Origin: Acidimicrobiia bacterium
Lineage (GTDB): Bacteria > Actinomycetota > Acidimicrobiia > Spongiisociales > ZC4RG35
Direction: 5' to 3'
DNA: 64,000 nucleotides
Assembly (NCBI GenBank): GCA_965215185.1
Contig: OZ244034.1
Location: forward strand, 704,001-768,000
The notes under the pieces are model-generated. The model saw only the letters and a program-made list of their open reading frames with translations, was not told the DNA's origin and searched no databases. Positions 2,761 through 51,535 of this stretch are shown here, piece after piece; position 1 is the stretch's first letter; every line of letters starts with the position of its first letter. The translations under genes were made by a program, and so were the position numbers.

Positions 2761-2780
2761 TAACACGATTCCATTCCGGT

Positions 2781-3710: not shown

Positions 3711-3736
3711 ACGCCCGGTAAGTAGTCTTTGGGGAC

Positions 3737-4423: not shown

Positions 4424-4429
4424 AAGCTC

Positions 4430-5509: not shown

Positions 5510-6102
5510 TGTTTACGGGAATCGTGGCCGAAGTGGGACGGGTGGTCGGCTCGGGGCGGATGGATAAGGGAAGACGACTGACGATTGAAGCGCCGAACAC
5601 CACCGAAGATCTGAAGGTGGGGGATTCGGTGGCGGTCAACGGGATTTGCCTCACGGCCGTTTCGATTGATTTTCCCCGATTCGAGGTGGAGGCGGTGGCC
5701 GAGACCCTGGCTCGCACCAACCTTGGTGGGGTGAGGAAGGGGTCGTCGGTAAACCTGGAGCGACCGGTCCGCGTGGGCGGAAGACTCGACGGACATATCG
5801 TGCAGGGACACGTCGACGCGGCGGGGGTGGTGATTAGCGTCCAAGCGGAGGGGGAGAGCCGGAGAGTGAAGATCTCGATCCCCGAGGGCTTGGAGCGTTA
5901 TTTGGTATACAAAGGATCGGTGGCGGTGGACGGGGTGGCCCTGACCGTGACGGGGGTAAGCGAAGGGTCCTTCGACGTCGCTTTGATCCCCCACACCCTG
6001 CAGGCCACCACACTGCGAGATTTGGAGGTAGGAGATTCGGCTAATGTTGAGGTGGACATTCTGGCCAAATACGTTGAGAGGCTATTGGAGTTTCGCAGTT
6101 GA
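5509..6102 (+). CDS. ribE: Riboflavin synthase
   Basis: MFTGIV N-terminus, [21 protein letters not shown]; ATG overlaps the ribD stop. Confidence 0.96.
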
Positions 6103-7316
6103 AGTTTGCATCCATACCCGAACTTGTCGAAGAGATTAGGAGGGGGGGAATGGTAATCGTCGTGGACGATCCTGATCGGGAGAACGAGGGAGATCTGATC
6201 GTGGCCGCCGAAAAGGTCACCGCCAAACAGATGGGTTTTCTCATTCGACACACCAGCGGGATCGTTTGTCTTCCCATCATCGGCGAGCGTCTTGATGAAC
6301 TGCAGATACCCCTCATGACACCCAGGACGGACCCTTCCGATTTGGGCACCGCCTTCACCGTGGCGGTTGACGCCCGTGACGGCGTCACCACCGGCATTTC
6401 CGCGGCTGATCGTACCCAGACGGTTCGCGCCATGATTGATCCCGAATCACGTCCCGTCGACATCGACCGGCCCGGCCATGTGTATCCGCTTCGCTACCAG
6501 CCCGGAGGAGTGTTGAGACGCGCCGGTCATACCGAAGCCTCGGTTGATCTGATGCGCTTGGCAGGGGTGTACCCGGCAGGGGTGATCGCAGAGGTGATGA
6601 ACGATCAGGGGGAGGTGGCCAAGCTGGAGGAACTCCAACGGTTTGCTCAAGAGCATGGGTTGTTGATCGGCTCGGTCGCCGATCTGATCTCCTATCGCCG
6701 CCGTACCGAGGGCAAGCTGGTGAAACGGGTGGCGAGTGCCCGGATGCCTACCGTCATGGGGGAGTTCAATGCGGTGGGATATCACTCCTTGGTGGATGGA
6801 CGACAGCATGTCGCGCTGGTGATGGGGGAGATAGGGGATGGGGAGGATGTGCTGGTGAGAGTCCATTCCGAGTGCCTCACCGGGGATGTCTTCGGCAGCA
6901 TGCGCTGCGATTGCGGAGAACAGCTGACTCTGGCCATGGTCAAGGTGGCGGAAGAGGGCCGAGGATTGGTGCTGTACATCCGCGGACATGAGGGGCGGGG
7001 AATCGGATTCTTCCCCAAACTCGTTGCCTACAACCTTCAGGATGAGGGGCTGGATACGGTGGACGCCAACCGGAATATGGGACTGCCGGTGGACTCTCGC
7101 GACTATGGGGTAGGGGCGCAGATCCTTTATGACCTGGGGGTCAGATCAATGAAGTTGCTGACCAACAACCCGGTCAAGCGGGCCGGCATTGAGGGATACG
7201 GTTTGACCATCCGAGAGCGCGTTCCGTTGGTGGTGGCCCCCAATGATCAAAACCGCCACTACTTGGAGACCAAAGCCACCCGCATGGGCCACATATACGC
7301 TCCCGACCCCGAATAG
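6099..7316 (+). CDS. ribBA: DHBP synthase / GTP cyclohydrolase II
   Basis: [41 protein letters not shown] motifs. Confidence 0.97.
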
Positions 7317-7341
7317 GGACATAACCGGGAGCCCAGTCGGA

Positions 7342-8904
7342 TCAGGCCGCCCGGGTGTCCTTTCTGCGAAGCACCCGCCCGGCGGTGGTATTGACCAGGC
7401 ACCCGGCTTCGATGGCGGCTTGGCCGTTGACGAACACGTAGCCCATCCCTGCCGCGTTGTTTCGGGGGTAGTCGAAAGTAGCTCGGTCCTCTATCCTGGC
7501 AGGGTCGAAGACAGCGAGATCGGCGGCCGCCCCCGGTCGGATCGCGCCCCGGTCGACCAGACCGTATCTGGTGGCGGGCATGCCGGTCATTCTCCGTATT
7601 GCGTCGGGTAACTGTAGCCACCCTTTCTCACGCACCAAATGGGCCAGCACCCGAGCGTGGGCGCCAAAACCTCTGGGGTGTGGATAGCTTCCCCGGAAGA
7701 GGCCGTCGGAGCCCACCATCCCCAGTGGATGAGTCATGGCGCGGCGGAGTTTCTCCTGGTCGTTCCACCGGTACACCATCAGCACCCGGAGGCGGCATTC
7801 CACCAGCAGTTTGCACACGGTCTCCGCCAGCGTGTTTCCTACGGCGCCGATTGCGTCGCGGAGCGAACGACCCTCCAACCAGTGGTAGGGACCGTCTGGA
7901 AGTGATGAGAAGAACGCGTCTTGGGGTCGGGAGACGTAGGCCCCGAAGAATCTCTCGATGTCCGGCGCCACGCGTGATTGGACCTCGGGATCGGCCAGCA
8001 ATTCGATCACCCGGCCGGGAGGACCCTGATCCACCCACTGGGGGAGGCAGAAAGCCAAGTGGCTGCTGGCCGCCATGTACGGATACGCGTCGAAGGTAAT
8101 GTCGACGCCCTCGTCCCGGGCGTCCACGAGTTCCTGGTAGAGCTGATCCGATCCGAATAGATGCGAGATGTGCACCGCTATTTGCGCCTCCCGACCGACT
8201 TGCAGGGCTTCACGGACGCCGGTTGTCACATCCCCCCGAATGCCTCGGACGTGGGAGGTGTATACCCCACCGTACTCGGCCACCACCTGCGCCACCGCCA
8301 CCAGTTCTTCGGTGGTGGAGTGCCCAGATGGAAAGTAGTCGAGACCCACCTGGATGCCCGAGGCGCCCTCCTCCATAACCTGGCGGGTGAGATTCTGCAT
8401 GTGTTCGACCTCCGATGGCGTCGCCGGGCGGGGATCCCACCCCACCGCTTCGGCCCGCACCGCGTTGAATCCCACCTGCGGAACCAGGTTGATTCCCACC
8501 TTCCCCTCGAACATTGCCAGGTATTCGCAAGTGTCGGACCACTCCCAGTCCTGTTCGGGAGCACCGTTGAAAACCTCCAGGTAAGCCTTCATCTCGGCCA
8601 GACGCGGCGGCGACAGAGGGGTGTAGGCGAATCCATCCGGCGCCATTAGGTCGGTAGTGATCCCTTGCCGCAGACGGGCCTCCAGGTCGTCTCCACGCAG
8701 CAATGAGAACTCCGAGTGGGAGTGGACATCGATGAAACCGGGGCAGATCGCTAGGCCCCTTGCATCCACCCTGTGGTGGGTTTGGGCGTCATCCAGGCGC
8801 CCGACCGCCGCGATCCGGTTCCCGTTTAGACCCACATCGGCCCGGAACCCGGGGCTCCCCGTTCCGTCGAAAACAGTGCCTCCGGTCAGGAGCCAGTCGA
8901 ACAT
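7342..8904 (-). CDS. D-aminoacylase family amidohydrolase
   Basis: GGTVFDGTG, PGFIDVHSHSE, YTSHVR, HISH, GSDG...HPRGFG, ADLAVFDP. Confidence 0.88.
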   Translation of the reverse strand: MFDWLLTGGTVFDGTGSPGFRADVGLNGNRIAAVGRLDDAQTHHRVDARGLAICPGFIDVHSHSEFSLLRGDDLEARLRQGITTDLMAPDGFAYTPLSPPRLAEMKAYLEVFNGAPEQDWEWSDTCEYLAMFEGKVGINLVPQVGFNAVRAEAVGWDPRPATPSEVEHMQNLTRQVMEEGASGIQVGLDYFPSGHSTTEELVAVAQVVAEYGGVYTSHVRGIRGDVTTGVREALQVGREAQIAVHISHLFGSDQLYQELVDARDEGVDITFDAYPYMAASSHLAFCLPQWVDQGPPGRVIELLADPEVQSRVAPDIERFFGAYVSRPQDAFFSSLPDGPYHWLEGRSLRDAIGAVGNTLAETVCKLLVECRLRVLMVYRWNDQEKLRRAMTHPLGMVGSDGLFRGSYPHPRGFGAHARVLAHLVREKGWLQLPDAIRRMTGMPATRYGLVDRGAIRPGAAADLAVFDPARIEDRATFDYPRNNAAGMGYVFVNGQAAIEAGCLVNTTAGRVLRRKDTRAA

Positions 8905-8983
8905 TCCCGATCCTTGGCGTAACGCGTCACGGTTTCCGATGGTACTTCAGAACTGGTCTTCCAGAAGCCCGGCCGCGACGGTG

Positions 8984-10123
8984 TCAGAGAGTGATGACCA
9001 GTTTGCCGACATGGCTCTTGGCCAAAAAGGCCTCTTGTGCGGCGTGGATCTCCGATAGCGGGTAAGAGCCACCTACGATCGACCGGACCAAGCCGCCCTC
9101 GATGTAACCCACCAGATCCGAAAACACTCCAGGTTCGTAGACAGTTGCACCGTGAAGCGTGAGATCCTTCAGATAGAGGGTTCTTAGATCAAGCTCTACC
9201 ATCGGCCCGGCTATGGCCCCGGAAGTGAGGTACCTCCCCCGGTGGCGCAATACCTCCAGCCAACCTCCAAAATCATCACCGCCCACCACATCGGCCACTA
9301 CGTGGAAAGGCCCTCCGTTGGCCTCCATGGCTGTCTGAGGAACCTGACCGACCTGCCGGATCGCTACATGATCGGCGCCGAGGTCGCTCACCTCATCGAG
9401 TTTGGCCGCAGTGGTTATGGCGACCACCCGGGCGCCCCGGAGCTTGGCAAGTTGCACCAGCGCGCTGCCCACCCCTCCCGATGCCCCCGGCACCACTATC
9501 GTCTCCCCGCCGCGGAGGTTGGCCAGCTGCAGCATATGTTCGGCGGTCGACCAGGAACACGGGAAGGCAGCCAGTTCCAGGTCAGAGAGGTCGGTGGAGA
9601 TGGGATACACGTTTTCGCTCGGTGCTGTGCAGTATTCGGCAAAGCCGCCATCACGTTCGCTTCCCACGTATCCGGCGAACTCGGGCTGGTCGGGGCGAAG
9701 TCGATCTCGCAGGCAAGGATCGACCATCACTCGACGGCCGATGAGATCGGGATTGGCTCCGTCTCCAACTTCCACCACCACCCCGACAACGTCGGAGCCT
9801 TGAATGCGGGGAAAGGACAGCCCCCTCCGACTCCATCCCACGTCACGGAGGTCAGCGTCGTCGTAACCGGATTCGCTGGTGGCGGTGGTTATCGAACGGC
9901 TGTACCAACCCACGCGGGTGTTGATATCTGAGTTGTTGAGACCGCAGGCGGCCACGCTCACCACAACATCGCCGGGTTCGGCGCGGGGTACCGGTACGTC
10001 GTCGCGGACCTGTAGCGCTTCGGGTCCTCCGATGCCCAGCAGTAGCGCGGCTCTCATGGTTTTGGGCCTGGCGGTGTTTTCACTTGGGTCCTGACCCGTC
10101 ACGTTCTGTTCAACTTTGCTCAT
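8984..10123 (-). CDS. Zinc-type alcohol dehydrogenase-like (MDR family) oxidoreductase; start uncertain (10123 or 10057)
   Basis: GGPEALQVRDDVPVP, PRIQGSDVVG, GGFAEY, GASGGVG, GKLVITL. Confidence 0.88.
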   Translation of the reverse strand: MSKVEQNVTGQDPSENTARPKTMRAALLLGIGGPEALQVRDDVPVPRAEPGDVVVSVAACGLNNSDINTRVGWYSRSITTATSESGYDDADLRDVGWSRRGLSFPRIQGSDVVGVVVEVGDGANPDLIGRRVMVDPCLRDRLRPDQPEFAGYVGSERDGGFAEYCTAPSENVYPISTDLSDLELAAFPCSWSTAEHMLQLANLRGGETIVVPGASGGVGSALVQLAKLRGARVVAITTAAKLDEVSDLGADHVAIRQVGQVPQTAMEANGGPFHVVADVVGGDDFGGWLEVLRHRGRYLTSGAIAGPMVELDLRTLYLKDLTLHGATVYEPGVFSDLVGYIEGGLVRSIVGGSYPLSEIHAAQEAFLAKSHVGKLVITL

Positions 10124-10327
10124 CTTGGCAGCCGATCCTTGCTCATAGAACGTCCCGCCTTCGCTGTGTCTCTCAGTGGACTTCAAATGACCATAAGGAG
10201 GCTAACGCAAACCGGCGACCGCCAATGAGAGCGACAATTCCCAAGGGGTGTTTTCCGGGTTTGGCGGCGCCCACCCTTTCTCTTAGGGTTGCGATCCGCA
10301 GGACGCGTCCAAATAAAGGAGCAGGAC

Positions 10328-10519
10328 ATGAGACTGGCATGCGAGGGTTGTGACTGGGCAATCGAGCAGGAGACAGCTGACGAACTCCACACCGCGATGA
10401 TGAAGCATGGCGAGGAAACCCACTCGAACCTCTTCGAAGGGAAGACCCCCGAGGAACTCGAGGCGATGAAGAAGATGATGACCGTCCACGTCTATGAGAT
10501 GATCGCAGCTCAGAACTGA
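10328..10519 (+). CDS. Small putative metal-binding protein, DUF1059-like (63 aa)
   Basis: CEGC near the N-terminus plus HxxxxH; strong AAGGAG RBS before ATG 10328. Confidence 0.65.
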   Translation: MRLACEGCDWAIEQETADELHTAMMKHGEETHSNLFEGKTPEELEAMKKMMTVHVYEMIAAQN

Positions 10520-10641
10520 TCCATCTGGCCCGGTCGGCGCCGAAATCCTGATGTGAGAGCGCTGGCGCCTCTCGGAATCCGGATAGGGGCCGCCGGACTA
10601 GATTAAGCAGACTGAACCTATGTCCAGAAAGGAGCAGGGAA

Positions 10642-11964
10642 ATGGCTAAGGCGCTGGTTGGGGGAAGGGTGATAGACGGGACGGGACGGGGTCCGATCGA
10701 TGACGCGGTGGTGTTGATCGACGGAGAACGAATTGATGCGGTATTCCGCAGGGGTGAGATGGAACTTTCCGCCGATACCGAAGTGGTGGACATCACCGGT
10801 TCCACGGTGATTCCGGGTCTGATCGACTGCCATGTTCATGTGGCAGTGCTGGCCGATAACTCTTTCCTCCAGGTGGAGGATCCCAAATCGCTGGCTGATC
10901 TGTTCATGACCACATTGTTGTCTCATGGGGTGACCACCGTCCGGGACACCGGCAACTTCGATCCTGATGAGGTCTTCCGCACCTTCAAGGCGGGTAAGGC
11001 GAACTGGCCCCGCTTTTTCGGCGCGGGCACCATCTTGGACGGACCGGCCGATCCCCCTGCACCCTGGCGGTGGCTGGCCGTGATCGACGACGAGGAATCG
11101 GCCCGTCGGGAAGCGGCGAAACTCCTTGACGCCGGCATGGATTTCCTTAAGGTCTATGTGTGGGCGCGGCTCCCGGTACTGCGGGCCGTGATATCGGAGG
11201 CCCACCGGCGGGGGGTGGCGGTCTCAGCGCACGTCGGACACATGGTGACGGTGGAGGAGGCGGTCAGAGTGGGTGTCGACGCGTTGGAGCATGTTCGGAT
11301 CGGACGCGAACTGGTGCCAGAAGACCGGATGGACGAATTCAAGGCGCTCACGGGCCGGATGCTCGATCCCCTGGTGGGCTTCCAGCCGTGGCGTTTCATC
11401 GATCCCGATTCGGACTTGACCGACAGTTTGATCGCGCTCATGGCCGAGAAGGGGATATACATTACGCCCACCCTCACCCTCTCCCAGGCCATCCTGCTGG
11501 GCAACACCCACGAAGCGGTCAATCCGGCGGGTTTGGACGATATGCCGGCCGCGGTTGCCGAGCAGTGGAGCCAGTATGCCTACCCGTTCGACTACACCGA
11601 GACCGACTGGGAAGCGGCGCCAGTGGAGCTACGCAACCAGATGGCGTTCATCGGGCGCGCCCAGCAAGGTGGAGTCAAAGTGACGGCCGGCACCGACCTC
11701 ACCAACCCGTTCGTGGTACCAGGCCACAGCATGCATGAGGAGTTGCGTCTCCTGGTGGAAGGCTGCGGATTCTCACCCATGGAGGCCATTGTGGCCGCCA
11801 CCAGTCGAGCCGCCGACCTGTTGGGCCAAGGCAACGACCTAGGCTCGGTGGAGAAGCGCAAGCTGGCCGACCTGGTGGTGCTGGAGGCCGATCCTTTGGA
11901 TGACATCCGCAATACTCAGCGGATCGCGGCGGTGTATAAGGGTGGTCAGCCGGTAGCCACTTGA
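10642..11964 (+). CDS. Amidohydrolase family protein (imidazolonepropionase-like fold)
   Basis: PGLIDCHVH, GVTTVRDTG, LEH, AGTD, ADLVVLEADPL; AAGGAG RBS. Confidence 0.9.
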   Translation: MAKALVGGRVIDGTGRGPIDDAVVLIDGERIDAVFRRGEMELSADTEVVDITGSTVIPGLIDCHVHVAVLADNSFLQVEDPKSLADLFMTTLLSHGVTTVRDTGNFDPDEVFRTFKAGKANWPRFFGAGTILDGPADPPAPWRWLAVIDDEESARREAAKLLDAGMDFLKVYVWARLPVLRAVISEAHRRGVAVSAHVGHMVTVEEAVRVGVDALEHVRIGRELVPEDRMDEFKALTGRMLDPLVGFQPWRFIDPDSDLTDSLIALMAEKGIYITPTLTLSQAILLGNTHEAVNPAGLDDMPAAVAEQWSQYAYPFDYTETDWEAAPVELRNQMAFIGRAQQGGVKVTAGTDLTNPFVVPGHSMHEELRLLVEGCGFSPMEAIVAATSRAADLLGQGNDLGSVEKRKLADLVVLEADPLDDIRNTQRIAAVYKGGQPVAT

Positions 11965-11965
11965 T

Positions 11966-12829
11966 CTAGGCCGATGTGATCCGCATCCGCACGCCCATCG
12001 CCAGGTCCGGATCAATGTCAAGACCTCGGGCAGTCTCTGAGAATAGGACGCCTCGGCGGGACAGGACCCGGGTGGTGCTGGTGATGTCATCGGTGGACAA
12101 GACCAAACGAAATGGTCCGGGTCCATACCGTTCCAGATTGCGGGCCATGGGGCCGTCCTCAGTGGGCTCATGGATGCCCAGGTCGAATCCGCCCAATCGG
12201 TAGTGACGACTTCGGACCCCCGCCTGCGGCCAGGGTGGCTCAGCGCGGCGGGACCGAAGCCCCAGTGCCCGGTCATAGAGGCCTTCCGCCGCATCCAAGT
12301 CGTCAACTGCTAAATCAATGCCGATTGCCCCGCTTACCCCACTGTCGTGGTTTCCGGGTGGATCCCAAGCCAGCAGGTCCGACTCGTCGGTGATCCAGTC
12401 AATCAGGTAGGGCCAAGGCTTGCGCCATGGCGACCCCCCCGGCACTACCAGCCGCCATTCCAGCCGCCGTCCATCAGGACGCACCCGGTCCATGTCGAAT
12501 GGTCCTTCCGCCTCGATTCCCAGTCCCTTGAGTCCGCTGGCTTCTGTTTCCAAGCCGGTCCCGGCCAGCACGAATCCCACCAGGCCCGAGGATTTCTCCA
12601 AGTAAGCCAGCAGTTCGCCGCCGAAGGGTCCCCGCCCCCTCGCCCGACCTGGGTCTTCCACTGAAAGCAATTCCAGATAGTCGAGACCAAATCGGACTAT
12701 GGCGTTGTGGGTGCCAAGTGAGGGGTGGCGACCGCCTTCGGCTACTTCAAATCCCAACTGGCGGAATGCCGCAATCCCAGATTGCAAGTCGGAAACGCCG
12801 ATCACCGCGTGGTCGAAACGTTCGATCAT
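11966..12829 (-). CDS. VOC / glyoxalase-like domain protein
   Basis: FDHAVIGVSDL, GGRHPSLGTHNAIVRFGLDYLELL, PYLIDW. Confidence 0.85.
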   Translation of the reverse strand: MIERFDHAVIGVSDLQSGIAAFRQLGFEVAEGGRHPSLGTHNAIVRFGLDYLELLSVEDPGRARGRGPFGGELLAYLEKSSGLVGFVLAGTGLETEASGLKGLGIEAEGPFDMDRVRPDGRRLEWRLVVPGGSPWRKPWPYLIDWITDESDLLAWDPPGNHDSGVSGAIGIDLAVDDLDAAEGLYDRALGLRSRRAEPPWPQAGVRSRHYRLGGFDLGIHEPTEDGPMARNLERYGPGPFRLVLSTDDITSTTRVLSRRGVLFSETARGLDIDPDLAMGVRMRITSA

Positions 12830-31621: not shown

Positions 31622-32635
31622 ATGAGCACTGAGGCCATACACCGAGAAGTAGTGGTGTCCAGCCAGCACCTGTTACGGGACTTGCTGGGCGCCAGCGACT
31701 CCCACTTTCGGGTACTGCAGGAATCCTTTCCCCTGGTGCAGATGGTGGCGCGGGGCGCCAACGTGTCCCTGCGGGGGCCATCGGAGGAGGTGGGTCTGGC
31801 GGAGTCGGTGGTCAAGGAACTCCTCTTGCTGGTGCAGGAAGGCACCTCTTTGGACGGTCGTGTCGGCTCGGTGGTGCAGATGGTGCGCGAGGAACTTCCC
31901 GATCCGGCCGGAGTTTTGAGCCAGACCCTGTCGTTGGGGCGCGGCAGACTGGTGAGGGTCAAGACCCATCGCCAGTTGCGCTACGTGCAATCCATCCGGG
32001 AAAGCACGGCCACCTTTGCGGTCGGGCCGGCCGGCACGGGTAAGACCTATCTGGCGATGGCGGCGGCGGTGGAGGCTTTGGTGCAGGGTAATTGCCGAAG
32101 AATCGTTCTCACCCGCCCAGCAGTGGAGGCAGGAGAGCGACTCGGCTTTCTCCCCGGGGATCTTACCGCCAAGGTCGACCCTTATCTGCGTCCTCTCTAT
32201 GACGCATTGTGGGACATGCTTGGTCATGATGAGACTGCTCGCTTGATTGAGCGGGGAACCATCGAGATCGCGCCGCTCGCCTATATGAGGGGACGCACTC
32301 TCAACGATGCCTGCGTGATCCTCGATGAGGCGCAGAACACCTCTCCCGAGCAGATGAAGATGTTCTTGACCAGGTTGGGCTTCAACTCCAAGATGATCAT
32401 CACCGGCGATCTCACCCAGACCGACCTACCTTCGGGACGATCATCAGGTCTGAGCGTGGTCCGCCGGATCCTCCGCGACATTCCGGGAGTGGCGTTCGTG
32501 GAACTTACCAGCCGGGACGTGGTGCGTCACCGGGTGGTTGCCGACATTATCGATGCCTATCAACGCTACGAGGATGCCGACTCCTCGGGCGCCCAGCAGG
32601 TTTCGAGAAGAGAGAACCATGCACGCCCAAGGTAA
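31622..32635 (+). CDS. phoH: PhoH family ATPase
   Basis: GPAGTGKTYLA, RPAVEAGERLGFLPG, MRGRTL, DEAQN. Confidence 0.95.
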   Translation: MSTEAIHREVVVSSQHLLRDLLGASDSHFRVLQESFPLVQMVARGANVSLRGPSEEVGLAESVVKELLLLVQEGTSLDGRVGSVVQMVREELPDPAGVLSQTLSLGRGRLVRVKTHRQLRYVQSIRESTATFAVGPAGTGKTYLAMAAAVEALVQGNCRRIVLTRPAVEAGERLGFLPGDLTAKVDPYLRPLYDALWDMLGHDETARLIERGTIEIAPLAYMRGRTLNDACVILDEAQNTSPEQMKMFLTRLGFNSKMIITGDLTQTDLPSGRSSGLSVVRRILRDIPGVAFVELTSRDVVRHRVVADIIDAYQRYEDADSSGAQQVSRRENHARPR

Positions 32636-35405
32636 TGGCACTTCCCCACGGTGGGATCAGCCGCTGGTCCGCGGATTGGTGCTGGTGTCTACGGTGGTAC
32701 TGGCCTGGGCAATCCTGACCATCGGGGCGGCCAGTGGAGAAGTGGATCTACGAGAAGGTGAACTGGCGACTCGAAACTATATTGCTCAGCGTTCCAACGA
32801 GGTGGTGGATCAAAACGCCACCCAGGCCCTGCAGGATGCGGCCGCCGAACAGGTTGAGAGTGTGACCAGTCGGGATGAAAGCATGGAACAACAGGTCAAT
32901 AGGGACCTTTCCGAATTGTTCGCGGCGGTGAGAAGCGGGGTGCTCTCACCTGCGCCGGAGTGGGTGGAAACGCTTTCTCTCCCGCCCACCAGCACCACGA
33001 CCACCACAACACCCACCACCGCTTCGACTCCCACCGCCGAACCGAGCACTACCACCTCAAGCCTCACCACTGTCACGGAACCGGCTTCGTCCACCGAAGG
33101 GGAGGATGATTCTGCCACACCCACCGATGGCGAACCTGAAACTGGTGCCGAAGGAGAGAGCGAGGGTGAAGCGCCCGTCACCACCGCTGCGCCCACCACC
33201 GCCGCCCCTTCGACCACTGAGGCCCCTCCCGAATCATTGGTGAGCACTCCGCTCCCCCCGGCCAGAGTTACCCTCACCGGCCGGGTCTTTTTGGATTTCG
33301 ACTCCGACGGTGCGATCACCGAGTCGGGGACCTATCCGGAGGTGGGGTTGGAGTTGATGACGGTGAGGGCTATTTCACCTTTCGGCGAGGGTTATGACAC
33401 CTTCACCCAGTCCAACGGTGATTTCAGCTTGGAGGTGCCCGAAGGGGTGTGGGAAGTGGTGGTGGACAGTCAGGACGCTGATCTTCCCCCGGGCTTCACG
33501 ATTTACTTACCCAGCCGGAGCCAACAGGTGGTGTGCTTGGGAGCGGACGCGGAATGTCCGGTCGACCCGGTTCCCTTCCTTCCGTTGATCCGGCCCATCC
33601 AGTTGCAGAACCAAGAGATTCTCCGGTCCTATCCCCAGTTGAACACGAGTTCGGTGGCCACCCTGGTGGAAGTTGCCGCAGACGACGTGATCCGCCAAGT
33701 GTCGGGGATTGCCCCCGGACTGGTGGAAATCGAGCGGGCCGCTCTCACCTTGATGGTGGATTCTTTCGCCGATGAGATCAAGAGCGAGGATCTGCTGTCC
33801 GCCCAGAGCAGCATCCTCTCCGACCCGCCCGTGGTGTTTATCGACGATGCCCGCAATCCGACTGCCGGTGAGACGGCCGCTGATATCGCCGCTTCCTTCC
33901 TGAGGCCCAATTCGTTATTCGACACCGGCGCCACTGCGGAATTGCGCCAGGAGGCCCGCGAGGCGCAGGAAGCGGTGACAGTCTCATTCCGATCTGGCCA
34001 GCCCATCATCGACGAAGGACAGCCGCTGACCCGGCTAGCCATCGATGCCATCTCCCAGACCGGCGCGGCCACCGGCAGACCCGCGCAGGAGGCGGGAGTG
34101 TTGGTGGTGTTGGGAGCGGTAGTGGCGGTCCTGTCCCTGTATCTGTACCGATTCCGGCTCGATCTGTGGGAACGTGTTCAACTCATAACTCTTTTCGGAC
34201 TGCTGACGGTGCTCGCCGCCGGCGCTGTCAGGGGCGCCACCTTCATAGGGGATGTCTTCGGCTACGAGGTGGGTATCTATGTGCTACCGGCGGTGGCTTT
34301 CGGGTACTTTGCAGCCGTCCTGCTGGACAACCGGGTTGGAATCCTTATGGCGGTGGCTCTGGCGGTGATTACCGCGGTGGGGACCCGAGACGCGGGCGCC
34401 ACCACCTACGCCCTGCTGGCCACCCTGGCTCCGGTGGGGTTTGTCTCCGCCGCTTCCAGCCGCCGGGCCTTCCGCAACTCGGTGGCCGTCTCGGCGGCGT
34501 CTTTGGCGGTGATCGCCGCGGCCACCGCCTGGATTTTCCACACCAGCATCGCCCAAGCCCCAGGGGGCATCATGCTGCAGGCCGGGGTATTGGCCTTCGC
34601 TTCTTCCCTGATCGCCGCGCTGGTGGCGCTGGCGGCCATGTCCTTCTTCGAGAGCATTTTCGATGTGACCACTACTCTGCGGCTGCTGGATCTCACCGAC
34701 CGAAACCACGAGGCCCTGCAACTGCTACAGGAAAAGGCCTTCGGAACATTCAACCATTCCTTAATGGTTGGGACTCTGGCCAGCGCCGCGGCCACCGCCA
34801 TCGGCGCCAATAATCTTCTGGCCCGGGCGGCCGCCTATTACCACGATTTGGGTAAGACCGAGAACCCCCAGTTCTTCATCGAAAACCAGTTCGGAACGAT
34901 CAACCCTCATGATCAGATGCCTCCCGAGCAATCCGCGGAGGTTATTCGCCGTCATGTCATCGATGGGATGAATCTGGCCACGCGCTATCGGATTCCCTCG
35001 GCGGTTACCGAGGGAATCGTTACCCATCACGGCACAGGAATAATCCGTTTTTTCTATGACAAGGCGCTGGGCGTTTACGGGGAGGAACAGGTCAACGTGG
35101 ACGACTATCGGCATGTGGGGGAAAAACCCCGATCTAGGGAGATGGCCATTGTGATGCTGGCCGATGGGGTGGAGGGGGCGTGTCGAGCCGCTTTCCAGAC
35201 GGGTTATGGGGAAGGAGCACCCCCCGAACCGACGCTGCAAGCCATCGGCTCGGTTATAGACGGGATCATCCGCGAAAAGATGTCCGACTTTCAATTGAAC
35301 GAGGCCTCTCTCACTTTTGCTGAGCTTCAATCCATTCGCAATGCCTTCGTGGAGGCCATGTCAGGCCACTACCATCAGCGCATCAAGTACCCCAACTTCC
35401 CTTGA
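32619..35405 (+). CDS. 7TM-HDIG membrane phosphohydrolase (PgpH-like) with an expanded extracellular region
   Basis: N-terminal TM, extracellular domain, multiple TM helices, GTFNHS, YYHDLGK, FFIENQ, HHGT, MLADGVE; conserved phoH-HD-ybeY context. Confidence 0.9.
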   Translation: MHAQGNGTSPRWDQPLVRGLVLVSTVVLAWAILTIGAASGEVDLREGELATRNYIAQRSNEVVDQNATQALQDAAAEQVESVTSRDESMEQQVNRDLSELFAAVRSGVLSPAPEWVETLSLPPTSTTTTTTPTTASTPTAEPSTTTSSLTTVTEPASSTEGEDDSATPTDGEPETGAEGESEGEAPVTTAAPTTAAPSTTEAPPESLVSTPLPPARVTLTGRVFLDFDSDGAITESGTYPEVGLELMTVRAISPFGEGYDTFTQSNGDFSLEVPEGVWEVVVDSQDADLPPGFTIYLPSRSQQVVCLGADAECPVDPVPFLPLIRPIQLQNQEILRSYPQLNTSSVATLVEVAADDVIRQVSGIAPGLVEIERAALTLMVDSFADEIKSEDLLSAQSSILSDPPVVFIDDARNPTAGETAADIAASFLRPNSLFDTGATAELRQEAREAQEAVTVSFRSGQPIIDEGQPLTRLAIDAISQTGAATGRPAQEAGVLVVLGAVVAVLSLYLYRFRLDLWERVQLITLFGLLTVLAAGAVRGATFIGDVFGYEVGIYVLPAVAFGYFAAVLLDNRVGILMAVALAVITAVGTRDAGATTYALLATLAPVGFVSAASSRRAFRNSVAVSAASLAVIAAATAWIFHTSIAQAPGGIMLQAGVLAFASSLIAALVALAAMSFFESIFDVTTTLRLLDLTDRNHEALQLLQEKAFGTFNHSLMVGTLASAAATAIGANNLLARAAAYYHDLGKTENPQFFIENQFGTINPHDQMPPEQSAEVIRRHVIDGMNLATRYRIPSAVTEGIVTHHGTGIIRFFYDKALGVYGEEQVNVDDYRHVGEKPRSREMAIVMLADGVEGACRAAFQTGYGEGAPPEPTLQAIGSVIDGIIREKMSDFQLNEASLTFAELQSIRNAFVEAMSGHYHQRIKYPNFP
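32981..33260 (+). repeat. Low-complexity Thr/Pro/Ser/Glu coding tract including TTAAP x2
   Basis: PPTSTTTTTTPTTASTPTAEPSTTTSS...PVTTAAPTTAAPSTTEAPP. Confidence 0.8.
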
Positions 35406-35935: not shown

Positions 35936-37116
35936 TCTTGATCTGGGTGGGAGCAGGGTTGTTGGTGAGCGCCTGTCTGCTGCTCGCGGGGCTGGGGGCC
36001 TTGGCCGTCATGGACCGGGCGGGGGAAGCACAGGCAGCGGCCGAAGGGCTTCGCCGTGCAGATCGGCACAACCGCATCCTGGGACGCGATCAATGGATGG
36101 TTCTTGCAGGGTGGCGGATGGAGGCGGCTATCACCATTGTGGCGGTGGCACTGATGACGGCGGGGCTTTCCTCCATCGGTTTGGCGGGCTGGGCGGCGGC
36201 GAGTTGGGCAGTGGCGATCACCCTCGGATGCCGACTAGTTGCCGGGTTGATAGGCCGTCGATGGGAAAGCGCAGAGCGGATTATCGGATTGGCGGAGATG
36301 GCTGCTCGAATGCACTACCGGCTGTGGGGACTGAGGTCCCCACTTGACTTCGACACCGCTGACTCCGAGGAACAAAACCACTCGGAGGAAAAAGAAATGA
36401 TCTCCTCGGTACTGGAGTTCTCCGAGACCATCGTAAGGGAGGTCATGGTCCCTCGCCCCGACATGGTGACCGTCCGAGCGGATGCCGGGTTGGATGAGTT
36501 GGCTGAGATAGTCAAGGAGTATGGCTTCTCCCGCTTTCCCGTTCTAGATGGCGGCATCGACCGCGTGGTGGGAATGGCGTTGGCCAAGGACTTGATTTCT
36601 GTCCTGGTAGGGGGCGAAAGCGACGCCACCGTGGCCGACATAAAGAGGAATCCTCTCTACATTCCAGAGACCAAGGCGGTCTCCGACTTGTTGCGGGAGA
36701 TGCGGCGCAACGGTGAACACATGGCGGTGGTGATCGACGAGCATGGCGGTACGGCAGGTCTGGTGACAATCGAGGATCTGTTGGAGGAGTTGGTGGGGGA
36801 GATCGTGGATGAGCACGATGAGGAGGACGAGTGGGTCCGGGCGGAAGAGGGAGGCGTGTGGTTTGTGGATGGACGGTTCCCGGTGGATGATCTGGGCGAT
36901 CTGTTGGGGGTTACCTTGCCTCAGGAGGACTGGGACACGGTGGGGGGTTTGGTATTGGCCTTGGCCGGCCGAGTCCCGAAAGTGGGGGAGACCCTGGCCA
37001 CCGAAGGCGTGGACTTCATGGTCAAAGAGGTCCTTGGGCATCGGGTATCGGAGTTGAGGGTGCATCGGAGTGGGGAGACTGCGGGGGGAGAGGTTAGAGC
37101 CGCGGCCGCCGGGTAG
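35932..37116 (+). CDS. HlyC/CorC family CBS-domain membrane protein
   Basis: N-terminal TM segments, VREVMVPRPDM, FSRFPV, DEHGGTAGLVTIEDLLEELVGEI, CorC-like C-terminus. Confidence 0.9.
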   Translation: MILIWVGAGLLVSACLLLAGLGALAVMDRAGEAQAAAEGLRRADRHNRILGRDQWMVLAGWRMEAAITIVAVALMTAGLSSIGLAGWAAASWAVAITLGCRLVAGLIGRRWESAERIIGLAEMAARMHYRLWGLRSPLDFDTADSEEQNHSEEKEMISSVLEFSETIVREVMVPRPDMVTVRADAGLDELAEIVKEYGFSRFPVLDGGIDRVVGMALAKDLISVLVGGESDATVADIKRNPLYIPETKAVSDLLREMRRNGEHMAVVIDEHGGTAGLVTIEDLLEELVGEIVDEHDEEDEWVRAEEGGVWFVDGRFPVDDLGDLLGVTLPQEDWDTVGGLVLALAGRVPKVGETLATEGVDFMVKEVLGHRVSELRVHRSGETAGGEVRAAAAG

Positions 37117-45021: not shown

Positions 45022-46135
45022 GTCGCCCGTCGCTTCCACCGAGGCGTCCGGGTTGAAGATACGTTTGCGGGTGGTGATCCCCGCCCATGACGAGGAGACG
45101 GTTGTAGGTGCCCTGGTCACAGATCTCCGCGGTCAGGATTACCCCTCCACCGCCTACTCGATGTGGGTGTTGGCCGACCGGTGCGGGGACGACACGGCCG
45201 GGGTGGCAGTCGGGGCGGGGGCTCAGGTAGTGACTCGCACCCTTGGTCCGGACGGCAAGGGAGAACTCTTGAAGTGGTATCTATCCCATCATCCGTTGTC
45301 CGGGGACGAGGCGTTGGTGGTTTTGGACGCCGACAACCGGGTGGACAAGGATTTCTTGACCCGGTTGGCCGAGGGGTTGGAACGCAGTGGCGGTGTGGTG
45401 CAGGCTTCGGTGCTTCCCTCCAATCTCGACGCCTCCCCGATCGCCGCGGCTGCCGGGTTGGGTGATTGGATGGCCAGGGAGATGGTTTATAAGAAGATGG
45501 CAAAGCGGGGTTGGCCGATGGAACTGGGCGGGACTGGGTTCGCAGCAACCGCGGCTGTGCTATCCGAGGCTGGTGGTTGGAGCGGGTCGTTCACCGAGGA
45601 CCTCGATCTGACGGTCAGATTGTTGTTGGCGGGCCATCAGGTCAGGTACCTACCCGGGGCCAGGGTTTGGGATGAAAAGCCAGCCCGGCTCGGGACCGCC
45701 GTCGGGCAGCGAAGGAGGTGGGCGCAGGGCCGCACCGGGGTGCGTAGGACCTGGGGAGGGAAGCTATGGATGGCCGCCCTGAGGAAACGATCCTTGCCCA
45801 TGATGATCATGGCCCTGCGTCTGGCTGTTCCCGGGAGGTCTGTGCGGCTGCTGGGTACGTTCGCCCTGGGTCTTCTGTCCGTGATGTGGGAATGGAGTTT
45901 TCCATTCTCCTGGCCGGTCTGGACAGTGGTCGCCTTGTGGTTGGGTGGCCGTCCGCTGTGGGCTTTGTGGTCGGTTAGGGAAGTTCGTCCCTATTTGCGT
46001 TGGTATCCGCTCACCCTGATGTGGGGCTTTGTGTGGCTGTGGGTTCGATTGGGTCCCCGTCGGCGGGATTGGTATCACACACCCCATCATGGAAAGCGTT
46101 CGGACCGCCGGAAAAACCGCTACTCAAACCCCTAA
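45014..46135 (+). CDS. Glycosyltransferase family 2, processive-type motifs
   Basis: VVIPAHDEE, LDADN, TEDLD, QRRRWAQG; C-terminal TM helices; WYHTPH. Confidence 0.9.
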   Translation: MSESPVASTEASGLKIRLRVVIPAHDEETVVGALVTDLRGQDYPSTAYSMWVLADRCGDDTAGVAVGAGAQVVTRTLGPDGKGELLKWYLSHHPLSGDEALVVLDADNRVDKDFLTRLAEGLERSGGVVQASVLPSNLDASPIAAAAGLGDWMAREMVYKKMAKRGWPMELGGTGFAATAAVLSEAGGWSGSFTEDLDLTVRLLLAGHQVRYLPGARVWDEKPARLGTAVGQRRRWAQGRTGVRRTWGGKLWMAALRKRSLPMMIMALRLAVPGRSVRLLGTFALGLLSVMWEWSFPFSWPVWTVVALWLGGRPLWALWSVREVRPYLRWYPLTLMWGFVWLWVRLGPRRRDWYHTPHHGKRSDRRKNRYSNP

Positions 46136-47174: not shown

Positions 47175-49289
47175 GTGGCTGCTGACCGGGAAAATCGTCT
47201 CCTGCGCATGCGCCAGGTGCCTCTGAGCCGCACCCGCAACATCGGCATCATGGCACATATCGACGCCGGCAAGACGACGCTCACTGAACGGATTCTCTAC
47301 TACACCGGTCGAAACTACAAGATCGGCGAGGTGCACGAGGGCGCCGCCACCATGGACTGGATGGCCCAGGAGCAGGAGCGGGGGATCACCATCACTTCGG
47401 CCGCCACCACCTGCATCTGGCACGACCACAGCATCAACATCATCGACACTCCCGGGCACGTTGACTTTACGGTCGAGGTGGAGCGAAGCCTGCGGGTATT
47501 GGACGGCGCGGTGGCGGTATTCGACGGAGTGGCGGGAGTTGAGCCGCAGTCAGAGACGGTTTGGCGCCAAGCCGACCGCTACCAGGTTCCCCGCATTTGC
47601 TTCATCAACAAGCTTGATCGGGTGGGGGCCGACTTCTTCGCGGATGTAGAGTCCATTCGCACCCGCCTGCAGGCCAAACCTCTGGTTCTTCAGCTTCCTG
47701 TGGGAGAGGAGAGCGGTTTTCGGGGAGTTGTCGATCTGGTGGAAATGCAGCTTCACGAGTGGCGGGGAGATGACGGCAAGCAGTGGGACACCGGGGAGAT
47801 TCCCGAGTCGATGCTGGACCTCGCCTACGAATACCGGGCACGGATGCTGGAACAAGTGGCTGAAGTGGATGAGAAGCTCCTTATCAAGTTCCTCGAAGAT
47901 TTGTACATCACCCCCGAGGAGATACGTGCGGCGATTCGGGTGGGTGTCTTGCAGCACATGTTTGTGCCGGTGCTATGCGGCGCGGCTTTCAAGAACAAAG
48001 GGGTCCAGCTGCTGCTGGACGCCATTGTCCATTACCTGCCCAGCCCGTTGGATCTTCCTGCGGTGCAAGGCTTCGCTCCCAAGAATCCCGAAGAGATCTT
48101 GGATCGCAAACCCCAGGACGACGAGCCCTTCTCGGCTTTGGCGTTCAAAATCATGACTGACCCCCATGTGGGCAAGCTCACCTACTTTCGGGTCTATTCG
48201 GGGTCGGCCTCCAAGGGCGGAGCGGTGCTCAACACCTCCAGCGGTAAAAAGGAGCGTTTGGGCCGGTTGCTTCGCATGCATGCCAACCGCCGCGAGGACA
48301 TCAATGACGTGTACGCGGGTGACATTGTGGCCGCGGTGGGACTGCACAGCACAACCACCGGAGACACGCTCTCCTCTATCCACGATCCCATCAGCCTGGA
48401 GTCCATGGCCTTTCCCGCTCCGGTGATCTGGGTAGCTATCGAGCCCCGCACTCGGGTCGACCAGGATAGGTTGTCCTCATCGCTTCAAAAGCTCTCCGAA
48501 GAGGATCCCACCTTCCTGGTGCGAAGCGATGAGGAGACCGGTCAGACCATCATCGCCGGAATGGGGGAGTTGCATTTGGAAGTGTTGGTGGATCGACTGG
48601 TCCGGGAGTTCAAAGTCGCCGCCAACATCGGTAAGCCGCAGGTCGCCTATCGGGAGACCATTGAATCGGAGTCGGGGAAGGTCGAAGGCCGCTACGTGCG
48701 ACAGAGTGGCGGCCGCGGTCAATACGGTCATGTGGTCATCGCCCTCGAGCCCACCGGCCCAGGAGGGGGTTACGAGTTCGTCAACAAGATCAGGGGGGGC
48801 CGTGTCCCTCGCGAATACATTCCGGCCGTGGCCGCCGGTATCGAGGAGGCTCTGGACGGCGGCTTCTTGGCCGGCTATCCGGTGGTGGATTTGAGGGTCA
48901 CCCTCCTTGACGGTTCGTATCACGATGTAGATTCTTCCGAGTTGGCCTTTCGGATAGCCGGGTCCATGGCAGTGCGCTCTGCCGCTAAGCAGGCGGGAAT
49001 GAAGCTGCTGGAACCGGTGATGGAAGTGGAAGTGGTCGCTCCCGAGGATTACATGGGAGATGTGATCGCTGATATTTCCTCGCGCCGAGGCCGAATCGAA
49101 GAAACCGATCAGCGGGGAACGTCTCGGATTATCACCGCAGCCGTGCCGCTGGGCGACATGTTCGGCTTTGCCACTGATATCCGTTCTCGGACACAGGGGC
49201 GAGCAACGTATACGATGCAGTTCAAGGCTTACCAAGATGTTCCAGCATCAATTTGTGAAGAGTTGCTTCACATGCGAACAGGTAAGTAA
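47175..49289 (+). CDS. fusA: Elongation factor G (start GTG 47175 or ATG 47208)
   Basis: [49 protein letters not shown]. Confidence 0.98.
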
Positions 49290-49298
49290 TACAGAAAA

Positions 49299-50519
49299 GG
49301 GGGTGTTTGGTTGTGGGTAAGGTGAGGTTTGAGCGGGTGAAGCCGCATTTGAATGTGGGGACTATGGGTCATATTGATCATGGGAAGACGACGTTGACGG
49401 CTGCGATTACGCGGGTGTTGTCTGAGCGGGTTGGTGGGAGGAATGTGTTTACTGGGTTTGATGATATTGATCGTGCTCCTGAGGAGCGTGAGCGTGGTAT
49501 TACGATTCAGATTGCGCATGTTGAGTATGAGACTGTGTTGCGTCATTATGCGCATGTGGATATGCCGGGGCATGCGGATTATATTAAGAATATGATTACG
49601 GGGGCGGCTCAGGTGGATGGGGCGGTGTTGGTGGTTTCGGCTGTGGATGGTCCGATGCCGCAGACGCGTGAGCATGTGTTGTTGGCGCGGCAGGTGGGTG
49701 TGCCGCGGATTGTGGTGTTTTTGAATAAGTGTGATTTGGTGGATGATGAGGAGTTGTTGGATTTGGTGGAGTTGGAGGTTCGGGATTTGTTGACGGAGTA
49801 TGAGTTTCCGGGTGATGATGTTCCGGTGGTGAGGGGTTCTGCTTTGCGGGCGTTGGAGGGTGATGTTGTGGCTGGTGATGGTGTGATGGAGTTGATGGGT
49901 GTGGTGGATGAGTATGTGGATATTCCGGTTCGGGATATGGAGCGTCCGTTTTTGATGCCGATTGAGGATGTGTTTTCGATTACTGGTCGGGGGACGGTGG
50001 TGACTGGTCGTGTGGAGCAGGGGGTGTTGAAGGTTGGTTCGGCTGTTGAGGTGGTGGGGTTGCGTGAGACGCGTGGTTCGGTGGCGACTGGTGTTGAGAT
50101 GTTTAGGAAGTTGTTGGATGAGGGTCGGGCTGGTGATAATGTGGGTGTGTTGTTGCGGGGGGTGGGTAAGAGTGAGGTGGAGCGTGGTCAGGTGTTGGCT
50201 GCTCCGGGTTCGATTTTGCCGCATGTGGGGTTTGAGGCGCAGGTGTATGTGTTGACTAAGGAGGAGGGGGGGCGGCATAATCCGTTTTTTTCGGGTTATC
50301 GTCCTCAGTTTTATTTTCGTACGACTGATGTGACGGGTTCGGTGGTGTTGCCGGGTGGTGTGCAGATGGTGATGCCGGGTGATAATGTGGAGTTGTCGGT
50401 GGAGTTGATTGCTCCGATTGCGATGACGGTGGGGTTGGATTTCGCGATTCGTGAGGGTGGTCGGACTGTGGGGGCGGGTCGGGTCACCAAAATCACCAAA
50501 TAACCCCCAAACCAAAAAC
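49299..50519. other. Strand-skewed tract: G/T-biased 49299-50484, A/C-biased 50485-50519
   Basis: Direct reading: all but one wobble position G/T up to 50482; 50485-50519 has no G and only 2 T. Confidence 0.95.
49313..50503 (+). CDS. tuf: Elongation factor Tu (396 aa) with extreme G/T codon bias
   Basis: [43 protein letters not shown]; intact frame; AAGGGGG RBS before GTG 49313. Confidence 0.98.
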
Positions 50520-50588
50520 TTTGTAAGAAGCAGACTTAGAAAACTAAAGACCAGAAAACCGGATAAGCGAGGACAGTAGAAGAGACCA

Positions 50589-50900
50589 ATGAACGGTTCC
50601 CAGAAGATCCGCATAAAGCTAAAGGCTTATGACCACCAGAGTGTGGATGAGTCGGCGCGCAAGATCGCTGCTACGGTCACTCGTACTCAGGCCAAGATCA
50701 AAGGTCCTATACCTTTGCCCACCGAGATTCATAGATACTGTGTTATTCGCGGACCCCACGTTGACAAAGACTCCCGGGAACATTTCGAGATGCGCATCCA
50801 CAAACGTCTGATTGATATTCTTGATCCGACCGCGAAAACGGTGGATTCATTAATGCGTCTTGACCTGCCTTCCGGGGTGGAAGTGGAGATAAAGCTGTGA
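50589..50900 (+). CDS. rpsJ: 30S ribosomal protein S10
   Basis: [31 protein letters not shown]. Confidence 0.98.
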
Positions 50901-51535
50901 ACACCATCCTGGGAACCAAACTCGGTATGAGCCAGATCTTCAGTGAGGACGCTCGGGCTTTGCCGGTCACCGTCATCAAGGCGGGCCCATGCCGGGTGGT
51001 ACAGGTCAAAACCGCGGAGACGGACGGTTATGAAGCCGTTCAACTGGCGTTGGAAGTCAGTAAACCGGCCAAGGTGGGGAAGGCCTTGGCAGGACATTTC
51101 GCCAAAGCGGGTGTGGCTCCCTCTCCCCATTTAGTGGAGACGTTGGTGGACGACTCGGGAGCGTTCCAGCCAGGATCGACCATCAATGTGGACGAGATCT
51201 TTGAACCAGGTGTGCGCGCCGACGTCACCGGCGTCTCAAGAGGCAAGGGCTTCGCGGGCGTGATGAAGAGACACAATTTCTCAGGACTGTGCGCCTCTCA
51301 CGGGACCCACAAGAAACACCGTTCAGGAGGATCGATCGGCGCCTGCGCCACCCCCTCGCGGGTATTCAAGGGAAAGTCGATGCCCGGCCGGATGGGCTCC
51401 GAGCGCACCACTGTTTTGAACATCGAAGTGGTGAGGGTATTGGCCGAAGAAGGGCTTTTGCTGCTGAGGGGAGCGGTACCCGGACCCAAGGGCGGATTGG
51501 TGATGGTCCGAAAGGCGGTCAAGGCCGGTGGATGA
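50897..51535 (+). CDS. rplC: 50S ribosomal protein L3
   Basis: [31 protein letters not shown]. Confidence 0.97.

Follow-up and report, generated by a model that had tools for sequence, protein, structure and literature searches.

A duplicated tuf gene in an Acidimicrobiia genome, almost confined to G and T at third codon positions up to an abrupt switch to A and C at its 3' end, and its possible link to NucS

Introduction

The paired genes for elongation factor Tu (EF-Tu) of Salmonella and Escherichia coli, tufA and tufB, are known to evolve in concert (PMC5485169, in the part of that article available). Here we describe a tuf gene of an Acidimicrobiia bacterium (genome G000; one contig of 3,121,534 bp, 95% complete) that lies in a stretch of 64,000 nucleotides (nt) at contig positions 704,001-768,000, hereafter the window, and that carries G or T at nearly every third codon position until an abrupt switch to C and A a few codons before the stop. 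As with tufA and tufB, two copies are kept identical between unrelated flanks, they occupy the classic positions (one after fusA and before rpsJ, the other after a putative tRNA gene and before a putative rpmG), and copy differences are confined to the gene ends. Unlike in that pair, one strand of the converted block has been stripped of almost all A and C wherever the sequence is free to vary, and there are changes at conserved residues. The enterobacterial systems also work with MutS and MutL, whereas G000 has no match for either.

Other described processes share some of these features. GC-biased gene conversion is likewise a nonadaptive drive that arises in heteroduplex repair, is strongest where recombination is frequent, and is able to override selection; it favors G and C on both strands, whereas tuf favors G and T on one, and at a third-position G+C content of 0.59 (0.85 to 0.98 in relatives with normal codon usage) the gene is not an instance of it. 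The filter that we propose would instead combine the mismatch specificity of NucS with a strand-asymmetric heteroduplex. NucS (EndoMS) repair is known from Actinobacteria and Archaea (PMC5290159, in the text accessible), and G000 is alike in having a two-domain NucS and no MutS or MutL match. The blindness of NucS to A-C, A-A, and C-C mismatches, as given in the available portions of PMC6159521 and PMC11551744, is exactly the asymmetry that the tuf pattern requires. Published NucS work deals with replication errors, oligonucleotide editing, and the suppression of homeologous recombination, and a lasting compositional ratchet in duplicates is undescribed there; the nearest statement is that of a 2026 preprint on Mycobacterium tuberculosis, in whose accessible part recombination-associated repair asymmetries are said to be able to reshape the composition of paralogous regions (PMC13061034). 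The strand skews left by replication and transcription run in the same direction, with an excess of G+T on the leading-sequence strand, here the coding strand, but they are diffuse, whereas the pattern in tuf reaches 0.98 against about 0.5, affects a single duplicated gene, has sharp borders, and includes transversions.

Concerted tuf evolution, biased conversion, and NucS specificity are each known. No prior description of their combination as a strand-specific drive toward the keto bases (G and T), or of a gene with near-zero A and C at free positions, was found in the literature searched, supplements excepted. Even without a mechanism, the run of 391 G/T-ending codons in 392 reported below, with its counterparts throughout the genus, appears undescribed in that literature.

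A tuf gene nearly devoid of A and C at third positions

The tuf coding sequence (CDS; 49313..50503, + strand) encodes a full-length EF-Tu of 396 amino acids in a frame without stops, with the GTP-binding domain (GTP_EFTU, PF00009, 205.7 bits), domain 2 (PF03144, 65.2 bits), and domain 3 (PF03143, 123.4 bits). Its true start is most likely the GTG at 49313 rather than the start of the open reading frame (ORF) at 49307, because that GTG aligns with the ATG of relatives. With 49307 as the starting point, G or T closes 391 of the first 392 codons, and a TTC at 50441 is the sole exception; within the tuf body (49313..50482, +) all 33 leucine codons are TTG, and over the whole gene the third positions are G at 0.58, T at 0.40, C at 0.013, and A at 0.008. 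The remaining codons, 393 to 399 (50483..50503, +; GTC ACC AAA ATC ACC AAA TAA), comprise six sense codons and the stop and all end in C or A. A first-pass annotation of the window had drawn attention to this flip, and its quoted letters, its codon counts, and its 35-nt run at 50485..50519 (+), with no G and only two T (one in ATC, one in TAA), were all reproduced; the cumulative keto skew (G+T minus A+C) at base resolution, which it had proposed to plot, peaks at 50483/50484.

The bias sets tuf apart from its surroundings. The G/T fraction at third positions is 0.52 in fusA, 0.60 in rpsJ, and 0.46 in rplC (0.46 to 0.60 over the fusA, rpsJ, rplC, and rplD span), and among the other G000 ORFs of at least 300 codons the next-highest reach about 0.65 and none exceeds about 0.67. 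The other high-scoring G/T ORFs of the genome are low-complexity repeats or noncoding frames, and among the long real genes of G000 the bias is unique to tuf. A general expression-linked codon bias was rejected on the same survey, given the ceiling of about 0.67 among the other ORFs of that length.

A 1229-bp block (49288..50516, +) that contains the gene recurs with 100% identity and 0 mismatches at G000 789269-790497, on the same strand and 36 kb away, and the flanks of the two loci are unrelated outside it. Upstream and downstream of the second copy (copy B) lie what we take, from the sequence as read, to be a tRNA gene and rpmG. The second tuf has the same switch, both copies being identical through it. 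Strains were compared through assembled contigs of sequencing runs (X1, X4, X15, and X16 among 24 runs). A contig of run X1 covers 49952-50516 without differences and breaks at 50516, the end of the repeat; the switch is therefore not an assembly join, which the first-pass annotation had named as a way in which it might be spurious.

Exchange between copies is also evident among relatives. Identical CDS pairs were found in 10 of 16 genomes, and proteins of different species differ by 4-7%, as expected of concerted evolution. Where the copies of a genome do differ, the differences fall mainly in the last 22 nt: at 22, 19, 16, 7, 5, and 4 nt from the stop in G002, at 16, 13, 7, 4, and 2 nt in G011, at 19 and 16 nt in G005, and at 4 and 1 nt in G032. 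Copy identity ends 0-30 nt 3' of the stop in 14 of the 16 genomes. In G028 it extends 71 nt beyond the stop, and there the G/T bias reaches the last four codons. The types of difference between copies within genomes were not discriminating.

The closest named record is labelled Acidimicrobiia. All members of the genus from which tuf was recovered have a G/T third-position fraction of 0.92-0.99; the fraction is 0.64-0.95 in other Acidimicrobiia families and 0.38-0.46 in typical Actinomycetota. The one A/C-ending codon of the tuf body, TTC (Phe379) at 50441-50443, is also TTC in 9 of 14 genus loci and 12 of 14 loci with intermediate usage, a conservation across alignments that suggests a local constraint on that C.

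The substitution spectrum and the association of the bias with duplication and NucS

At four-fold sites that have C in 13 outgroups with normal usage, tuf carries G in 682 cases and T in 437, and amino acid by amino acid the ratio of G to T is equal whether the outgroup base is C or G (for Val, 160:32 versus 198:32). The bias extends to the protein. At EF-Tu sites conserved in normal relatives, 29 residues have been replaced, of which 23 gain G or T at codon positions 1-2 and 1 loses it; the underlying base changes are A to G (12), A to T (9), C to T (6), A to C (5), and C to G (3). Compared with normal relatives, EF-Tu has shifted from 10.4% to 16.4% Val and from 5.0% to 2.5% Lys. Among related strains, exchange between G and T makes up most tuf differences (61 of 77 in X15, 53 of 69 in X16, and 45 of 73 in X4). 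At every codon position, then, the rule admits both keto bases and excludes both amino bases; it fits neither a history of transitions only nor a codon-anticodon preference.

Per-genome tuf copy counts were set beside G/T third-position fractions and profile searches for NucS and MutS. All 21 NucS-positive genomes with at least two tuf copies lie at 0.64-0.99. Of the 11 NucS-positive genomes with one copy, 7 lie at 0.38-0.46 and 4 are elevated (G010, G020, G023, and G048). Where NucS had no match, genomes with two copies gave 0.40 (G055), 0.57 (G030), and 0.71 (G050, a MutS-positive member of Rokubacteria), G055 and G030 matching neither NucS nor MutS, and genomes with one copy gave 0.44 (G027), 0.42 (G038), 0.45 (G044), and 0.71 (G049, a MutS-positive member of Acidobacteriota). 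The copy number of five records was predicted from codon usage beforehand, and all five matched. In the EF-Tu tree, biased and normal lineages interleave and offer roughly 5 sister contrasts (a rough count on a gene tree), in which the one-copy or NucS-lacking lineage has normal usage. The tuf bias tracks duplication plus NucS.

In G000 itself NucS is intact, as a 219-amino-acid ORF with an N-terminal PF21003 match of 86.2 bits and a C-terminal PF01939 match of 125.3 bits, and neither MutS_V (PF00488) nor MutL_C (PF08676) was matched in this single-contig, 95%-complete genome. Many members of the genus (G001-G037) have a second, weak NucS_C-like match of ~21-24 bits to the N-terminal half of the model only, in a frame of ~375 amino acids, which may be a distant paralogue with the NucS fold. 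In addition to its intact tuf, G049 carries a degraded second tuf-like copy (L147; G049:C8:73073-74254) with 59% identity and with two TGA and two TAG internal stops.

The 3' edge and the A/C tail

The switch at 50484 lies 32 nt inside the end of the block common to both copies. The last six tuf codons have a keto skew of -0.67, at about the 1st percentile of 1891 putative gene ends in G000, and the 40 nt 3' of the stop have -0.45 in copy A (2.5% level) and -0.60 in copy B (0.26% level) on the same set, in which gene ends generally are not A/C-rich (mean skew -0.02). Windows of 35 nt with at most two G/T on the + strand occur at 13 loci of the 3.12-Mb genome, against 0.05 expected if bases were independent and identically distributed, and the two tuf tails are 2 of these 13. 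The 13 noncoding nt after the stop that both loci share (50504..50516, +) are pure A/C; beyond them, a copy-specific, A-rich spacer (50517..50588, +) without a terminator hairpin or Rfam match precedes rpsJ.

Throughout the genus tuf ends in gtY acc aaR atc acc aaa taa; what comes next is unconserved in sequence and rich in A and C, and the 40 nt after the gene have a keto skew of -0.25 to -0.8 in all 20 genus loci. Relatives with normal usage also end in GTS ACC AAG ATC; since they share this ending, the tail codons ACC and ATC read as ancestral and the two AAA as derived from AAG, which normal and intermediate relatives have at both Lys positions. The first-pass annotation had held that an A/C-rich 3' end in relatives with normal tuf usage would speak against its interpretation, and for the coding part of the tail such an end is what we found. 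At 14 loci with intermediate usage, the last ~20 codons are 60% A/C-ending, compared with 4-27% in the rest of the gene and 64% in normal relatives. Judged from these alignments, a 3' zone exempt from the bias is general and its length variable, from 6 codons in G000 through ~11 in G011 to ~20 in other families. Conservation of the switch, another check proposed by the first-pass annotation, therefore holds within the genus, where it falls at codons 392-394, and does not extend to these other lineages.

The tail is purest where it is shared. Of 11 genomes, 4 were set aside because their copies diverge within 5 nt; in the other seven, whose copies match over 21 nt or more starting at codon -6, G/T makes up 16% of the shared tail (36/227), compared with 35% (145/420) in the next 30 nt of copy-specific spacer and a genome average of 50%. 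The shared noncoding pieces differ in sequence between species yet remain almost pure A/C. Pairing of the tail with the leader or its Shine-Dalgarno-like motif ranked the leader 3rd-59th among 77-78 segments at 17 of 18 genus loci (one was dropped for a short flank) and gave no specific 5'-3' interaction.

Strand skew in repeated DNA

The first-pass annotation had asked for the same switch in other repeats. Skew as such is a feature of repeats in G000: an absolute keto skew above 0.38 in 300-nt windows marks 88 regions, 54 of which have other copies in the genome, and a threshold of 0.3 is exceeded by 8.8% of 477 repeated windows compared with 0.9% of 9694 unique ones, an enrichment that is overstated because family copies are not independent (repeated DNA is 5.6% of the genome). 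Repeated and unique windows have the same purine skew (0.059) and equal G+C content. Some mobile-element-like ORFs are A/C-rich at the third positions of their own coding strand, and the skew therefore follows the DNA strand and not the reading direction. A comparison with ribosomal RNA spacers does not apply, as G000 has a single 16S rRNA gene (1218804-1220318); with that gene single, tuf may be the only ancient nonmobile duplicate of the genome.

NucS-filtered gene conversion as a possible cause

Gene conversion between tuf copies, filtered by NucS, may well have made the G/T tract, the flip being the 3' edge of the converted tract; to this account, the one we favor, we give about even credence. 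In Corynebacterium glutamicum, according to the accessible part of PMC6159521, EndoMS/NucS digests G-G, G-T, and T-T mismatches and no others. With oligonucleotides directed at the lagging-strand template of Mycobacterium smegmatis, C-C, A-A, G-A, C-A, A-C, and A-G mispairs install changes efficiently, G-T and G-G mispairs fail, and the repair patch is ~5-6 bp, as stated in the available portion of PMC11551744. The cumulative GC skew of G000 has its extremes at 1,111,827 and 2,531,171, with the origin at ~2.53 Mb and the terminus at ~1.11 Mb; both tuf genes therefore run in the direction of replication, with their coding strand serving as the lagging-strand template. These positions also dispose of the first-pass suggestion that the flip resembles a miniature replication-terminus switch, since the skew extremes lie at 1.11 and 2.53 Mb and the flip at genome position 754,484.

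In the heteroduplex that we envisage, the coding strand of the recipient would pair with the complementary strand of the donor, as in lagging-strand gap repair or strand annealing, and this strand asymmetry would be what gives the process its direction. A recipient A or C would then form only mismatches that NucS ignores, whatever the donor base, and could be converted; a recipient G or T facing a donor with A or C would form G-T, G-G, or T-T mismatches, and conversion would be rejected; and a recipient G or T would remain replaceable by its fellow keto base by way of G-A or T-C. The outcome would be a one-way ratchet in which changes from A/C to G/T spread, the reverse is blocked, and exchange between G and T is neutral. 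Such a ratchet would yield transitions and transversions alike, at all codon positions and against purifying selection, in repeats only. Near the end of homology, within ~32 nt of the block edge, conversion and with it the ratchet would fade, and ancestral C-ending codons would survive; the position of the switch would presumably reflect this edge effect. The exempt zone may be larger at the tuf 3' end because the complementary strand that is transferred has its 5' end there, an end conceivably more exposed to trimming.

Several observations weigh against this account. Four genomes have one tuf copy and are nonetheless biased: G048 (0.775), G020 (0.877), G023 (0.841), and G010 (0.92, partial gene). 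The assemblies of G020, G023, and G010 consist of 120-400 contigs and may have collapsed identical tuf repeats, and the NucS match of G048 is split. The value of 0.71 in G049 and G050, MutS-positive and without a NucS match, is unexplained. The class without a NucS match draws on incomplete assemblies (completeness 85% in G030), kin are not independent, the tree was built from the affected protein itself and is a gene tree, and the 13 normal-usage outgroups include two unpublished genomes (G027 and G038). NucS-positive genomes do show copy differences of G/T versus A/C. The strand asymmetry that the heteroduplex would need is an assumption, and the NucS specificity, measured in Corynebacterium and Mycobacterium, is carried over to Acidimicrobiia by analogy. 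On the left, a mere ~10 nt separate the start of the tract from the edge of the block. Elsewhere in G000, singletons among repeat copies of four insertion sequence (IS)-type families (three of seven seeds were dropped for too few long copies) were not polarized, with 50 toward G/T, 77 away, and 49 neutral, and in a sign test by replichore the skewed repeat windows lay on the predicted strand no more often (98/127) than unique ones (429/517). An ongoing hypermutation of repeats was rejected on the same singletons, 50 toward G/T against 77 away. Finally, a simple edge effect predicts a neutral tail, and at 16% G/T in the shared tail something more acts. The account by conversion at an edge does not explain the A/C purity, for which there are two candidate readings, a functional element and a mirror-image ratchet.

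Rather unlikely is that the tail is an independent RNA or DNA element, such as a C-rich, G-free Rho loading site behind a message rich in G and poor in C, or an unstructured A/C-rich spacer that aids translation of the next gene, and merely abuts the tract. A Rho-dependent terminator would call for some 70-80 nt of unstructured RNA with much C and little G; G000 encodes Rho, and the C/G ratio over the 78 nt from 50485 is 2.3 in copy A and 4.3 in copy B, against 0.28 in the tuf body. No intrinsic terminator (a G+C-rich hairpin followed by a T run) was found between 50400 and 50600, no Rfam covariance model matched 48800-51100 at E<=1, and the predicted RNA fold of 50420-50560 is weaker than that of shuffled sequence (z = +1.27). 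That the sequence after tuf is A/C-rich at both loci and at 20 genus loci, though not conserved, when gene ends in general are not, also agrees with an element of this kind. Against it, the avoidance is as strong for T as for G, a feature not needed in a Rho site; some tails, such as that of G004, are mostly A; and RNA-library contigs of a related strain run at least 37 nt beyond 50509, a weak point in that contigs cannot show transcript ends.

The second reading of the tail turns on a reversal of polarity. A recurrent break near codon 393 would expose a 3' tail of the coding strand to its left and one of the complementary strand to its right; the heteroduplex would be of opposite strand composition on either side, and one and the same NucS filter would drive G/T on the left and A/C on the right, within the short homology used for second-end capture. 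This keeps the geometry drawn in the first-pass annotation and puts NucS filtering where that had deamination; we consider it doubtful. The fuller proposition, that a keto ratchet drove tuf to ~100% G/T at free positions and overwrote conserved EF-Tu residues and that the flip marks a change of heteroduplex polarity at a recurrent initiation site, with ~30 shared bases driven to A/C, is a minority possibility, improbable on balance. In favor of a reversal, A/C purity is highest exactly in the shared tail and falls off just beyond it in the seven genomes, the shared noncoding tail varies between species yet stays A/C, mirroring the variation between G and T alone in the body, both tail Lys codons have become AAA from the AAG still present in normal and intermediate relatives, and the switch keeps to codons 392-394 throughout the genus. 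Opposed to these are the lack of any break, joint, or loose end at 50484 in the assembled contigs that were available, the last ~20 codons of intermediate lineages, whose 60% A/C-ending share does not go beyond the normal 64%, and G028, in which the G/T bias runs to the stop without a flip. There is no hint of a fork barrier or of a nuclease specific to this site, and tuf conversion in Salmonella initiates uniformly, not at one site, in the account given by the accessible part of PMC5485169. The fixed recurrent exchange point of the first-pass annotation fares accordingly: its tie to repeats stands, as does the location of the switch at the edge of an exchanged block, while the boundary is not fixed, its position varying between lineages.

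Selection on the mRNA is quite improbable as the source of the tract. Wobble positions restricted to G and U cannot form Watson-Crick pairs with one another and would give the most abundant protein a weakly folded, efficiently translated message, and the predicted folding of tuf (-0.255 kcal/mol/nt) is indeed weaker than that of recodings with typical usage (-0.328 +/- 0.014) and of normal-usage relatives (-0.367). Wobble positions restricted to A/C (-0.21) or A/T (-0.195) would fold less still, other highly expressed neighbors are unbiased, single-copy tuf of sister lineages is normal, conserved EF-Tu residues have changed, and an A/C tail beside a G/U body maximizes pairing (duplex energies of -28 to -40 kcal/mol). 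Transcription- or break-associated deamination (C to T, A to G) of the exposed coding strand, including the deaminating single-stranded tails of the first-pass annotation, is hardly credible: its direction would match the known transcription-linked asymmetry, a loss of C and A from the nontemplate strand, and would suit Leu codons that are all TTG, but the choice between G and T ignores the ancestral base and keeps no memory of its purine or pyrimidine class (C to G 682 versus C to T 437), transversions are frequent among the replacements (A to T 9, C to G 3) and exchange between G and T dominates strain variation, cotranscribed or equally expressed fusA and rpsJ are normal, as is single-copy tuf in the seven NucS-positive genomes at 0.38-0.46, and the bias stops before the transcript does.

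If NucS-filtered conversion is the cause, the specificity of a repair enzyme has rewritten a gene that is among the most conserved and most highly expressed in bacteria, without an adaptive cause, changing essentially every synonymous site and, with the 29 replacements, ~7% of otherwise conserved residues. Bacteria would then have a counterpart of biased gene conversion that is strand-specific and works through a different repair system. In Actinomycetota, caution would be called for in tests for codon selection and in phylogenies built on tuf. The mechanism would also hint at how NucS handles recombination intermediates in vivo, make an oriented G/T skew in converting duplicates a genomic readout of the strand exchanged, and predict similar footprints in other NucS-bearing bacteria and archaea. 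If initiation does recur at the flip, the flip would preserve, as a kind of fossil footprint, how gene conversion works mechanically in bacteria.

Flanking features and other skewed regions

Upstream of tuf lies the 3' part of fusA (EF-G; 47400..49289, +; Pfam EFG_IV, EFG_III, EFG_C, and GTP_EFTU), and downstream rpsJ (ribosomal protein S10; 50589..50900, +; Pfam Ribosomal_S10, 127.5 bits), both with normal codon usage. The G/T tract begins in a leader of G and T only (49298..49312, +) that holds a Shine-Dalgarno-like GGGGGTG and is conserved in the genus. An antisense ORF of 448 amino acids (minus strand, window 49268-50614) covers all of tuf. With G or T at each sense third position, no antisense codon of this frame begins with T, and the frame is free of stops; the ORF is an automatic by-product and is not to be annotated as a gene.

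An A/C-only 35-mer at 32985-33020 was set aside as unrelated to tuf, being part of a Thr/Pro-rich, low-complexity linker inside a 955-amino-acid ORF (32538-35405). Strong skew was also seen at G000 370885-372211, 1.60-1.67 Mb, and 3.08-3.10 Mb, and within the window at 1590-1774, 2119-2255, 36769-36964, and 45867-46063. Among the skewed regions are ORFs with a G/T third-position fraction of 0.15-0.25 that, going by their translations, are presumably integrases and IS110-type elements. The top keto-skew loci after tuf, at G000 605162-605539 and 2443482-2443820, are long, low-complexity tandem repeats of G/T only (or A/C only). Large repeated blocks of 5-15 kb with at least 85% identity lie at G000 1-12761, 898521-908799, and 2993081-3008465, one pair being formed by a block near coordinate 1 and one near 2.99-3.01 Mb.

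One further locus, L118 (G000 1609800-1612600), shows at its positions 480-1150 a switch from A/C to G/T, in the reverse order to that in tuf. One ORF there has third positions strongly rich in A/C as far as its stop, at 938, and abuts another ORF whose first ~60 codons are G/T-rich; from the look of their translations (the C-terminal part in the former), we take the two to be an OmpR-type response regulator and an IS256-type transposase.

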